A DNA stretch of 64,000 nt from Eledone cirrhosa (lineage: Eukaryota), in assembly GCA_964016885.1 (NCBI GenBank), contig OZ024743.1, forward strand, positions 124,868,001 to 124,932,000, given 5' to 3'. Shown here one piece after another: positions 5,786 to 60,090 of this stretch. Below the pieces are notes generated by a model. The model was given only the letters and a program-made list of their open reading frames with translations. It ran no database searches and had not been told where the DNA came from. Each line of letters opens with the position of its first letter. The stretch's first letter is position 1. Made by a program: the position numbers and the translations under genes.

Positions 5786-6860
5786 AAACGGAAAAAATGA
5801 AACAAAATTTCATTTCTCACTCTTAGTACGGCTGTTACTTAAATATAAGTATGTATACGTACATACATATATGTATACAGACGTATAGTAGTATGTATAT
5901 ATATACATACATGCACACATATATATATATGTACGTATGGATTTACCGAACATTTATTATAATGCTCGGTGTGTTTGTAAACAAACATCCCGAATTAAGC
6001 CGTATAGTGTCTAGCAACCATCGTTGCTCATTTGTTCAACACTGACAAAGGATCGATGCACTAGTTTCAAGCTTATTAGCTATCGTCAGCACTGTATACC
6101 TTCCTGCCAGATGATTGAACATCTGAAAGTATATAATTTCCTTAAGCATATTAACGGCTGAGCAGCCTAATTTGCATATCGAGTGAGTTAATCGGCCGGG
6201 CGCACCGAAAACAATAAACGGAAAAAATGAAACGAAATTTCATTTCTCACTCTTAGTACGGCTGTTACTTAAATATAAGTATGTATACGTACATACATAT
6301 ATGTATACAGACGTACAGTAGTATGTATATATATATACATACATGCACACATATATATATGTACGTATGGATTTACCGAACATATATTATAATGCTCGGT
6401 GTATTTGTAAACAAACATCCTTATATTTGTAAACAAACATACTTATATTTAAGTAACAGCTGTACTAAGAGTGAGAAATGAAATTTCGTTTCATTTTTTC
6501 CATTTATTGTTTTCGGTACGCCCCGCCGATTAACTCACTCAATATGCAAATTAGGCTGCTCAGCCGTTAATATGCATAAGGAAAGTATATACTTTCAGAC
6601 GTTCAATCATCTGGCAGGAAGGTATACGGTGCTGACGATAGCTAGTTCCTTTGTCAGTGTTGAACAAAAGAGCAACGATGGTTGCTAAACACTGTACGGC
6701 TTAATTCGGGATGTTTGTTTACAAACAGACCGAGCATTATAATAAATGTTCGGTAAATCCATACGTACATATATATATATATGTGTGTGCATGTATGTAT
6801 ATATATACATACTACTGTACGTCTGTATACATATATGTATGTACGTATACATACTTATAT
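5786..6860. repeat. Retrozyme-like family A: ~1.5 tandem 430-bp units (minus sense) plus one inverted unit
   Basis: AAACGGAAAAAATGAAAC recurs at 5786 and 6216 (period 430); 6438-6860 is the reverse complement of a full unit; the unit carries a minimal HHR and an octamer ATGCAAAT. Confidence 0.8.
6054..6094 (-). ncRNA. Minimal type I hammerhead ribozyme, mutated copy (GUG triplet)
   Basis: Minus strand: cagtg CTGACGA tAGCTaataAGCTt GAAAC TA GTG catcg. Confidence 0.6.
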
Positions 6861-6871
6861 ATATATATATG

Positions 6872-7200
6872 TGAGGCACATGGCTTAGTGGTTAGAGCAT
6901 TGGCCTTGCAATCGAAAGGTTGTGAGTTCAATTCTCAGACCGGGTGATGTGTTGTTTCCTTGAGCAAGACACTTTATTTCACATTGCTCCAGTTTACTCA
7001 GCTGTAGAAATGAGATGATAGGGACTGAGGTCTATATCATTCCACTGCAAAGTGGTCGTGGAGGTGCCACGGCAAAAAAGCACCCAGCACTCACTGTAAA
7101 TGAGGTTGGTGTTAGGAAGGGCATTCAGCTGTAGAAATCAAGCCAGAATCAGTTCCCGTCCCACCCTTGCAAACAGGAAAAAGCGGACGTAAAATGAAGA
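6872..7200 (+). mobile_element. Full-length CORE-type tRNA SINE with RTE-derived 3' tail
   Basis: A-box TGGCTTAGTGG, B-box GAGTTCAATTC, CORE-like CCTTGAGCAAGACACTT...CAGTTTACTCAGCTGTAGAAATG; tail matches the LINE 3' UTR at 49163-49380. Confidence 0.85.
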
Positions 7201-7216
7201 TATATATATGTATATA

Positions 7217-7410
7217 GAAAGCACCCAGCCCACACTGTAAATGTGGTTGGCATTAGGAATGGCATCCAGCCATAGAAAACCAGCCAGAAACACTCCTATA
7301 TGAGCGAGACACGGTCACCCGACACAACTTGCCTCAAAATAGGATCCGTCTAACCCATGCCAGTGTAGAGGATGGACGTTAATTGATGATGATGATGATG
7401 ATGATGATGA
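7217..7410 (+). mobile_element. RTE/SINE 3' tail fragment ending in (GAT)n
   Basis: GGAATGGCATCCAGCC...AACCCATGCCAG...GGACGTTAA(TGA)n. Confidence 0.6.
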
Positions 7411-8659
7411 CATACTGTGAAGATGTTTGACTTAGGAATTAAGGTGTTAAAATCACTATTGTAAGGTTATGAGTTTGATTACTGGGCAAGGCCTTGAGGA
7501 AGCTACTTCATTTCATGTTGCTCCAATTCACTCGGCTGAAAGAATGTGTAACAATAGCAGTTCAAGGTTAACTTTATAACAGACCAGAATCACATCCAGG
7601 GGGAAGTCTGGTACTCTTAGTTGCTTAGAATAGGGGCTTAGCTTCTGGGTTTGAGACAGACTTTTTAAAACATATGTATAATTTACTATTACTCATCACA
7701 TCCACCATAATAAAAATACCCTCAAGCAAAATTAGTCTGACAGAATTTGTATGTAAGGTTGGCCTTTTGAATTACAAGTCCACTCCATCTAACAGGTTTT
7801 CAGACTGTTTCTATCTATCTAATTTCACTCACATAGTAAGGGTTTTTTTCAAGAAATTCAAGATTGAGATGCAAGGAAGTTGATGTATTTAAAACCAGTC
7901 AAACCCATGCCACTGTGGAAAATAAGACATAAAACTACCAGTGTGTGTATGTGTGGGTATGTGTTTTATGTCTTTTGTCTAGATGTTGCATCAGTATCTT
8001 CTCCTGACTGCAGAATTAATCTACAAAATGAAGACATCAGTATTCAAAATGTGATCTTTGTAATTGCCAACAAAATGCCTTACCAATAACCTAATTTCCT
8101 GTCATGTAGCAACCAAGTGAAATTATTTTCTGGACTTGCCTTATATTTTTATTTTTTTCTATTTTATTATTATTTCTCTTATCTTTTTCCATAATTATCA
8201 ATGCTATGTTTTTTGTTTTATCAAAAATGAATGTCCAAGAAATAAAACTCTATAAGAATAAGATAATACACTGATTTACTATTTATTTTTGCTATTCTAT
8301 CTATTGCATAATGCTTATTTTATTGTCATTATCAATAAATGAAATAATATAATCAATTGATGATTTCTGTGATATTCTGACTTTCAATTTCTCAAATACT
8401 TAACCCCTTCAATATAATCAACTCTTGCAGTGTACTTAGATAAAAATATTAAAATAAATTGCAATGAACACACTTTCAACACCAACCCACTTCAGACTAC
8501 CTCTACTGAAGTGTCCAAATTTAAATTCAAATCTTCAACTGAAATCATATTATTAACATGAAAGATAAGAAGATAGTATTAGGTTTCAACAGGAAAATGC
8601 ATGGCTTATTGGTTAGGGTGAACTCAAAACACAAAGAGCTGGAACAAATATTGGTTTTT

Positions 8660-9000
8660 AATTTAGGCACAAGGTCAGCAAATTTGGGGGAAGGGCAAAG
8701 TTGATTAAATCAACCTCAGTACTTGACTGATATTTTATCTTATCAATGCCAGAAGGATGACAGGCAAAGTTAACGTTGGCAGGATTTGAACTGAGAGCTA
8801 GAATAAATACTGTAATGGCATTTTATCTGACATTCTACCAATTCTGCCAATCCCCAAACCTTAGCCAGAACAAATATTACAAGGTAACCCCCCCCCCCAA
8901 TGCACTAACAATTTCACCAATCCACTCCTCTTTACTGTTACTGAACTTTATCAAACCTGAAAGAATGAAAAGCAAATTTGGCCTCAGTGAAATTTGAATC
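8660..9000 (-). mobile_element. Degraded tRNA-SINE copies
   Basis: AGGATGACAGGCAAAGTTAAC...GGATTTGAACT and a second GAATGAAAAGCAAATTTGG...ATTTGAATC. Confidence 0.5.
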
Positions 9001-58254: not shown

Positions 58255-58368
58255 GAAATAAAGCAATGTGAAATAAAGTGTCTTGCTCAAGGAAACAACA
58301 CATCACCCGGTCTGAGAATTGGACTCACAACCTTTCGATTGCAAAGCCAATGCTTTAACCACTAAGCC
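58255..58368 (-). mobile_element. CORE-SINE 5' fragment
   Basis: Reverse complement of the SINE head. Confidence 0.8.
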
Positions 58369-58537
58369 TATATATATATATATATATATATATATATATA
58401 TATATATATATATATATATATATATATATATATATATATATATATATATGTATGTATGTATGTATGTATGTATGTATGTATGTATGTATGTATGTATGTA
58501 TGTATGTATGTATGTATGTATATATATATATATATAT

Positions 58538-58877
58538 GGAGGCACATGGCTTAGTGGTTAAAGCATTGGCTTTGCAATCGAAAGGTTGTGAGTTCAATTC
58601 TCAGACCGGGTGATGTGTTGTTTCCTTGAGCAAGACACTTTATTTCACATTGCTCCAGTTTACTCAGCTGTAGAAATGAGATGATAGGGACTGGGGTCCA
58701 TATCATTCCACTGCAAAGTGGTCATGGAGGTGCCACGGCAAAAAAGCACCCAGCACTCACTGTAAATGAGGTTGGTGTTAGGAAGGGCATCCAGCTGTAG
58801 AAATCAAGCCAGAATCAGTTCCCGTCCCACCCTTGCAAGCAGGGAAAAGCGGACGTAAAATGATGATGATGATGATA
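58538..58877 (+). mobile_element. Full-length CORE-type tRNA SINE
   Basis: Near-identical to 42641-42985. Confidence 0.9.
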
Positions 58878-58902
58878 CATATATACACATATATATATGT
58901 AT

Positions 58903-59078
58903 ATAACGAAGGAAATGTGGTAAGGAACCAGATGGACCATAACGCACCAAAGTACTCAATACTTAGGGTAGTAGAGTGGGTAATAGGAACGACTAGGACC
59001 CCGACGGCTGAGCTCAAGCCGTTTCGGCGACTAATTCTGAACTAAAAGCTCAGCCGTTGGGGTCCTACTCGTTCCGAT
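58903..59078. repeat. Small bipartite element with terminal inversion (cf. 30983-31105)
   Basis: AAGCTCAGCCGTTGGGGTCCTACTCGTTCC inverts GGAACGACTAGGACCCCGACGGCTGAGCT. Confidence 0.7.
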
Positions 59079-59389
59079 ATATGTATATATATATATATGT
59101 ATATATATATATATATGTGTGTGTGTATATATATATATATGTATGTATATATATATATATGTATGTATATATATATATATATGTATATATATATATATAT
59201 ATATGTATATATATATATATATATATATATATATATATATATATGTATATATATATATATATATATACATACATATATATATATACATACATATATATAT
59301 ATACATACATATATATATATACATACATATATATATATACATACATATATATATATATATATATATATATACACTCATATATATATATA

Positions 59390-60090
59390 TAAGCATGTAT
59401 ACGTATATACATATATGTATACAGACGTACAGTAGTATGTATATATATACATACATGCACACATATATATATATATGTACGGCTAAATTCGGGTTGTTTG
59501 TTTACAAACAAACCGAACATTATAATAAATGTTCGATAAACCCATACGTACATATATATATGTGTGTATGTATATATATATGCATACTACTGTACGTCTG
59601 TATACATATATGTATGTACGTATACAGAGTGAGAAATGAAATTTCATTTCATTCTTTTCCATTTATCGTTTTCGGTACGCCCGGCCGACTAACTCACTCG
59701 ATATGCAAATTAGGCTGCTCAGCCGTTAATATGCATAAGGAAAGTATATACTTTCAAAAGTTCAATCATCTGACAGGAAGGTATATAATGCTAACGATAG
59801 CTAATAAGCTCGAAACTAGTTTATTGTTCCTGTGTCAGTGTTGAACAAAAAGGCGACGATGGTTGCCGAACACTGTACGGCTTAATACGGGCTGTTTGTT
59901 TACAAACAAACCGAACATTATAATAAATGTTCGGTAAACCCATACATACGTATATATATATGTGTGCATGTATGTATATATATACATACTACTGTATGTC
60001 TATATACATATATGTATGTACGTATACATGCTTATATTTAAGTATCAGCCGAACTAAGAGTGAGAAATTTCATTTCATTTCATTCTTTTC
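59390..60090. repeat. Retrozyme family A: short inverted partial + ~1.4 tandem units (HHR at 59786-59826 with CTAACGA mutation)
   Basis: GTACGGCT.AA..CGGG.TGTTTGTTTACAAAC recurs at ~59477 and ~59875. Confidence 0.85.

Follow-up and report, generated by a model that had tools for sequence, protein, structure and literature searches.

Insertion anatomy of family A, a hammerhead-bearing 430-bp repeat of Eledone cirrhosa, points to Penelope-like machinery

Metazoan non-long-terminal-repeat (non-LTR) retrozymes have been described from coral, mussel, axolotl and newt, where they include satellite 2, and their cleavage and circular RNA have been demonstrated (Cervera and de la Pena 2020, PMC7229834). 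That paper proposes Penelope-like elements (PLEs) as a candidate mobilizer of retrozymes, without an insertion footprint in the part of its text available to us, which is the part meant here and below for every cited source. The movement of animal retrozymes and the roles of hammerheads and tails in PLEs are stated as open questions (PMC7229834, PMC8557442). More recently, Li, Clavereau and Pollet (2026 preprint, 10.64898/2026.07.22.740005) proposed PLE pseudo-LTRs as the origin of retrozymes and PLE enzymes as their means of movement, again without an insertion footprint. We analyzed a 64,000-nucleotide stretch of the octopus Eledone cirrhosa (the window; GCA_964016885.1, OZ024743.1, positions 124,868,001 to 124,932,000 of the forward strand; contig C4 of the 3.0-Gb genome G000), in which a 430-bp hammerhead-bearing repeat, here called family A, occurs at three loci. 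We propose, with a probability of roughly 0.8, that family A is a non-LTR retrozyme that a PLE moves in trans with its reverse transcriptase (RT) and GIY-YIG endonuclease.

Family A resembles the metazoan retrozymes of PMC7229834 in being a noncoding tandem unit within 150 to 450 bp, with a GC content below 50% and one type I hammerhead per unit, and in ranging from monomers to long arrays in tens of thousands of copies. As the reference unit we took window positions 5786-6215 (430 bp) in reverse complement, numbered q1-430, with the hammerhead core at q127-157. It is 35% GC, its circularized form has no ATG open reading frame (ORF) longer than 64 amino acids, and its subfamilies span approximately 420 to 500 bp at 35 to 37% GC. 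An intact type I hammerhead lies at 57624-57664 (+), with a 5-bp helix I, CUGAUGA, a 4-bp helix II on a U-U mismatch, GAAA, a palindromic ACUAGU helix III and a GUA cleavage triplet. Two others are predicted to be inactive, that at 6054-6094 (-) having a GUG triplet at the cleavage site and that at 59786-59826 (+) a core mutated to CUAACGA, while the fourth, at 6627-6649 (+), is damaged by a deletion that removes the GAAA core together with half of helix II and the helix I 3' strand. The weak, palindromic helix III is like that of axolotl Amex1, and the helix II on a U-U mismatch is like that of Amex2 (PMC7229834). A first-pass annotation of the window had reported one noncoding unit at three places, with one intact hammerhead and three damaged ones, as a candidate cephalopod non-LTR retrozyme, and apart from the cephalopod label, which is its own, the sequence agreed with it on each of these points; its word "minimal" suits helix III but is loose for a hammerhead in which helix II is present. 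At the level of sequence, family A thus has the makings of a metazoan non-LTR retrozyme, with self-cleavage and a circle, both demonstrated for the published metazoan retrozymes, as predicted properties.

The arrangement of the three loci is not the one first described, which was of simple tandems of 1 to 1.5 copies with permuted ends. Instead, each locus consists of two opposed arms lying head-to-head with their 5' ends meeting. The outer (3') ends occupy two fixed positions in the unit, and only the inner (5') ends vary. At locus 1, the first arm (5784-6420, -) comprises 1.48 units, is 5'-truncated at unit position 226 and has a tailed 3' end that runs into (TA)n at 5784, while the inverted second arm (6437-6863, +) comprises about 1.03 units from unit position 362 and has a tail-less 3' end that also runs into (TA)n; a 22-bp duplication marks the arm junction (6402-6450). 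Locus 2 is made up of an inverted arm of 0.45 unit (57274-57502, -), whose tail-less 3' end lies within (TA)n, and an arm of 1.01 units (57500-57942, +), whose tailed 3' end runs into (TA)n. At locus 3, an inverted arm of 0.23 unit with a tail-less 3' end (59384-59482, -) meets an arm of about 1.5 units from unit position 210, which has a short internal deletion and a tailed 3' end (59476-60090, +). The tail itself (57883-57942, +) is 60 nucleotides (nt) long here and 59 nt in most copies; it spans the gap between the two fixed 3' end sites, contains a predicted terminal hairpin and is carried at only one end of a two-armed insertion. Contigs from four runs, aligned to locus 1, pointed to a high copy number and gave no usable empty-site joint.

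In order to place insertion ends on the unit, we scored 98 insertion clusters from four samples and the window. Left out were the duplicates L016 and L031, 13 of 30 pattern loci, which overlapped or were repeated, the long array described below, ends cut by locus edges, and arms that had less than 76% identity or were confined to the TA-rich part. Of the 3' ends, 119/138 fell within q360-381 or q420-4, windows that make up 8.6% of the unit, with modes at q376 (36 ends) and q432 (46 ends). Since the alignment extends three bases into the TA flank, the short end is by direct reading at q373, and the two sites are therefore 59 nt apart. Only 9/139 5' ends lay within these two sites, and the random sample alone gave 15/17 3' ends at the two sites versus 2/17 5' ends. 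The earlier view that permuted ends reflect reverse transcription of a circular monomer is thus not supported: the 3' ends, for which random permutation is rejected, show the fixed endpoints that the first-pass annotation had named as one ground for refuting it, and what varies is the result of ordinary 5' truncation. A preference of ends for the ribozyme cleavage site was also considered and rejected (0/138 3' ends and 2/139 5' ends).

The same anatomy recurred across the scored clusters. Two-strand insertions were head-to-head in 43/43 cases; both outer ends could be scored in 42 pairs, and in all 27 that were classifiable one end was tailed and the other tail-less. Many insertions consisted of a single arm with a fixed 3' end and a truncated 5' end. 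A TA run lay within 15 bp of 97/136 3' ends and of 14/52 free 5' ends, against a background of 8.5%. Inversion junctions overlapped by 1 to 8 bp in 17/42 cases, and 83/148 arms extended upstream across the unit junction into another unit, reaching lengths of up to about 7 units. Target duplication was clear in one case, of 13 bp (L011), among 17 candidates, the others being of low complexity.

The available part of PMC7229834 does not describe retrozymes with the fixed 3' ends, head-to-head arms and one-sided tail of family A. Such features are, however, familiar from endonuclease-positive (EN+) PLEs such as Neptune, Hydra and Penelope/Poseidon, which are known for 5' truncation and partial tandems, for an inverted 5'-truncated copy, for a tail confined to one end, for a (TA)n bias and for a hammerhead in the repeat (PMC8557442, PMC3846280). 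Partial tandems, inverted copies with 5' truncation, a tail on one side and a (TA)n bias are hallmarks of PLEs, and the inverted arms and the one-sided tail, which the first-pass annotation had missed, point to PLE-like machinery. A multicopy, head-to-tail, nonautonomous form is also known in the nonautonomous Chlamys elements such as MRC1 (PMC8557442, PMC3846280). Unlike EN+ PLEs, family A has no RT or endonuclease ORF and is not itself an autonomous EN+ PLE, and the whole element is one repeat unit; its tail is about 59 nt long, compared with the 30 to 40 bp described for PLEs (PMC8557442, PMC3846280).

Candidate sources of such enzymes exist in the same genome. A young Neptune-like PLE family retains many intact ORFs of approximately 1217 amino acids (L113-L118), with RT and GIY-YIG regions and an asparagine-rich insert, and a second, Hydra-like family has ORFs of approximately 727 amino acids. 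Pfam recognized the PLE ORFs of neither family, and their identity rests on motifs and on Atlas neighbors at 0.95-0.98 that carry RT and GIY-YIG families; the labels Neptune-like and Hydra-like are provisional ones taken from the cysteine linkers (the Hydra CxCX5C linker being known from the literature). The Neptune-like family ends in (TA)n, either tail-less or with tails of about 44 or 58 nt, and its simple two-armed copies carried one tail in 4/4 cases (L107, L113, L175 and L188, with the complex L110 set aside). Its pseudo-LTR has a hammerhead-like core with a poorly paired helix I. First-look PLE candidates numbered 20,022 and 45,187 genome-wide, many more copies than the two families that we compared.

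Decayed PLE copies also lie in the window, at 27375-28163, 31254-35225, 36163-38959 and 39650-42029; two have inverted ends, and they include a Neptune-like copy and Hydra-like ones with a CxCX5C linker. Endonuclease/RT fragments of long interspersed elements (LINEs) and tRNA-related short interspersed elements (SINEs) are abundant at 13173-15820 and in related copies, where they and family A are nested within shared (TA)n runs.

Each position of the hammerhead core, the free N7 position excepted, was retained in at least 55 of 57 near-full copies, a figure that overstates core intactness because these copies were chosen by BLAST. A structural hammerhead scan gave no matches in reversed controls, and helix I continues through an internal loop. 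Rfam gave an HH9 match only below threshold (20.5 bits versus a gathering score of 52; E = 0.009), and a search of the whole window was dominated by microRNA matches to TA repeats. Closure of helix III in the monomer is calculated to cost 5.4 kcal/mol, whereas the 6-bp intermolecular duplex gains 4.8 kcal/mol, values that are consistent with cleavage as a dimer, as in axolotl (PMC7229834).

Family A is abundant, and most of its copies have an intact core. A 35-letter pattern of the intact core had 11,982 + 11,369 = 23,351 exact matches in the genome and none in the reversed control. In a random sample of 86 evenly spaced 10-kb stretches (859,800 bases), 16 contained family A clusters; one of these was pure array, and the other 15 correspond to about 53,000 dispersed insertions genome-wide (95% range, 30,000 to 87,000). 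The array, on contig C28, extends over at least 100 kb at approximately 109.96 to 110.06 Mb (L190, L225-L233), lies on a single strand, has a 4.4-kb interruption and contains recurring unit variants. It holds 200 cores across 90 contiguous kb and 5 more 10 kb beyond, with none at 109.94 or 110.08 Mb. One further published feature of metazoan non-LTR retrozymes is present in L239, L240 and the C28 array and in none of the three window loci. A metagenome scan for family A gave no matches. We found no octopus or other cephalopod hammerhead family described in the literature covered, although Repbase, Dfam and supplements, which were outside that scope, may list family A.

Other hammerhead families accompany it. 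The random stretches (860 kb) yielded 40 dispersed type I hammerheads of canonical form, which fall into about ten families and of which many stand in head-to-head pairs; this amounts to about 140,000 genome-wide if the sample is typical, and controls gave none in reversed and 0 to 2 in shuffled sequence. Family B, whose unit is related and measures about 467 bp, occurs at window 51599-51990 (-) and also at L079 and L151, and has a complete type I hammerhead with its core at 51932. It has the ACUAGU helix III and an octamer in common with family A and a similar terminal hairpin, while helices I and II are different; a genome search for it gave no match and is uninformative, since family B is present in the random stretches. 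At L079 281-3381 (C3, 190.00 Mb), eleven 310-bp units with identical cores represent another hammerhead family and adjoin an assembly gap.

The octamer, ATGCAAAT, lies at 57551-57558 (+) in the window and is retained in most copies of family A as well as in family B. Newt satellite 2 offers a parallel for a promoter of the small nuclear RNA (snRNA) type, although we found no source for this in the literature. Such a promoter is unsupported for family A, as the octamer occurred in 0/18 distinct U1/U2 upstream regions of the genome. In those regions (L241-L263), the U1 and U2 genes have three elements in common: a TTACCTCCCTT-like motif at about -260, TCAGT at about -55 and, at about -27, a TATA-like run. 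A TTACCTCCC motif, similar to the U1/U2 upstream one, directly follows the Hydra-like ORF at the L119 and L122 3' ends.

The anatomy suggests how an insertion might arise. Tandem copies would be transcribed into multimers, in which neighboring hammerheads would pair through their palindromic helix III and cut at GUA to yield 430-nt monomers that a host ligase could circularize, as the axolotl and mussel work suggests (PMC7229834). A PLE endonuclease would then cleave AT-rich DNA, mostly (TA)n, which is the target preference that we observed. The two DNA ends would each prime reverse transcription on RNA of one haplotype, one end per site, at about 373 and about 432, in keeping with the end rule and the haplotypes of the arms. 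From there each arm extends backwards by 0.1 to about 7 units, past the unit junction and the cleavage site, to a variable stop, and the two cDNA ends are joined head-to-head, often by a microhomology of a few bases, as the 17/42 overlapping junctions record. Later, some copies expand as DNA, as we observed in one dimer duplication and one array of more than 100 kb.

The sequences of the arms bear on the nature of the template. At 32 subfamily sites, discordance was 70/1435 between tandem units and 55/825 between opposite arms, compared with 42% between different insertions, and this low discordance within insertions indicates that both arms come from one haplotype. The 5' ends of the two arms coincided within 10 nt in only 2/25 cases, so that fold-back copying of arm 1 into arm 2 is rejected as the main route, and either arm could be the longer one (13 versus 12). 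Independent 5' ends, together with the fact that either arm may be longer, favor two priming events over fold-back. We lean slightly toward a circular template at this step; it is plausible given that the putative priming sites are internal to the unit and removed from the cleavage site, and that there are arms of several near-identical units. More tentatively, and at somewhat less than even odds, we suggest that both ends of a staggered (TA)n break are used by the PLE enzyme at the same time to copy a single circular RNA made by the hammerhead, with the primers fixed 59 nt apart on the template.

The strongest competing explanation accepts the same PLE-driven insertion and replaces the circle with a linear read-through multimer transcribed from tandems or long arrays, the hammerhead being slow or serving only to trim transcripts. 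A source of long multimers exists in the C28 array, with its at least 200 units in 90 kb; the unfavorable closure of helix III in the monomer may make cleavage slow, and in the 2026 preprint only 1/9 Xenopus dimers cleaved. Two primings on one long linear RNA would likewise yield single-haplotype arms. However, units within an insertion differ by 2 to 3% compared with 7.7% between insertions, and the nine near-identical units of L239 differ by 0 to 4 bases per pair. In addition, the common variant of the C28 array, present in 26/164 array units, occurs in 0/10 random and 1/84 BLAST-picked dispersed cores; being nearly missing from dispersed copies, it makes that array unlikely as their main source. 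Cores also remain intact across diverged families. We consider a linear multimer the less likely template.

A second explanation treats the unit as nothing more than the pseudo-LTR of a coding PLE, with the insertions as 5'-truncated fragments of that element. The anatomy does fit PLE ends, PLE pseudo-LTRs bear type I hammerheads (PMC8557442), and an evolutionary origin of the unit from a pseudo-LTR remains likely (10.64898/2026.07.22.740005). As an account of the present insertions it is nevertheless very improbable: the 83/148 arms that continue upstream enter another copy of the unit, for up to about 7 units, so that the unit is more than a coding element's terminal repeat; mapping of PLE fragments in the family loci, judged by eye, showed no arm that entered RT or endonuclease sequence; and neither of the two PLE families compared had ends matching the unit. 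A DNA-level foldback element, miniature inverted-repeat transposable element (MITE) or satellite, in which the arms are terminal inverted repeats and the hammerhead is a passenger, would suit the long inverted arms, AT-rich targets, satellite-like array, local DNA duplication and lack of an RNA-editing scar, but is scarcely credible given outer ends that are identical in 0/27 pairs, unlike terminal inverted repeats, many single-arm insertions that are fixed at the 3' end and truncated at the 5' end, an RT-encoding element of matching anatomy in the same genome, and about ten unrelated families in the random sample that retain the type I core with different helices.

Several observations weigh against our interpretation of family A as a PLE-mobilized retrozyme. 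Half of the scored loci were chosen by BLAST similarity to the window copies, and in 15/42 scored pairs one of the ends lies elsewhere than at the two sites. Pairing at the variable position of helix I, kept in 46/48 readable copies (U-G in 18, A-U in 18, G-U in 9 and C-G in 1, with 9/57 copies unreadable), speaks in favor of the hammerhead, yet this covariation reflects just two or three subfamily events, not 46. Folding of the circularized unit gave z = -8.0 against 60 shuffles, a value inflated by TA-rich hairpins, and its minimum-energy structure has no complete hammerhead. The unit has no sequence similarity, ends included, to the Neptune-like or the Hydra-like family, the two compared, and neither is identified as the partner PLE. 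With respect to the template, a variant found in 6/7 units of one arm of L239 is present in 0/2 of the other, so that a single unmodified circle is insufficient as an explanation. The ABAB dimer at L240 carries private mutations that are absent from all 8 other loci of the same search; a propagated dimeric circle is therefore rejected, and the pattern is a local DNA duplication, so that tandem repetition is partly made at the DNA level. Finally, an A>G strand bias marking an edited RNA template was not found (56 versus 53).

The kind of element and its link to PLEs have already been proposed in print, and what family A adds is a test bed rather than a new class. It fits the pattern of dispersed monomers and clustered multimers in the 2026 preprint, the evidence of which is co-occurrence and pseudo-LTR kinship, mostly in vertebrates, whereas for family A the evidence is measured anatomy, with no PLE kinship found. 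Family A thus provides a countable footprint, with two fixed putative priming sites, exactly one tail per two-armed insertion and arms of a single haplotype, and this insertion anatomy links the spread of a retrozyme to PLE enzymes beyond co-occurrence. The presence of a 430-nt substrate and an intact 1217-amino-acid PLE in one genome makes an in vitro or cell assay feasible. If the proposed copying of one circle from both ends of a break is true, one geometry would account for the long-unexplained PLE tail, head-to-head inversion and partial tandems, and the 430-nt element, in its tens of thousands of copies, would be a record of that geometry.

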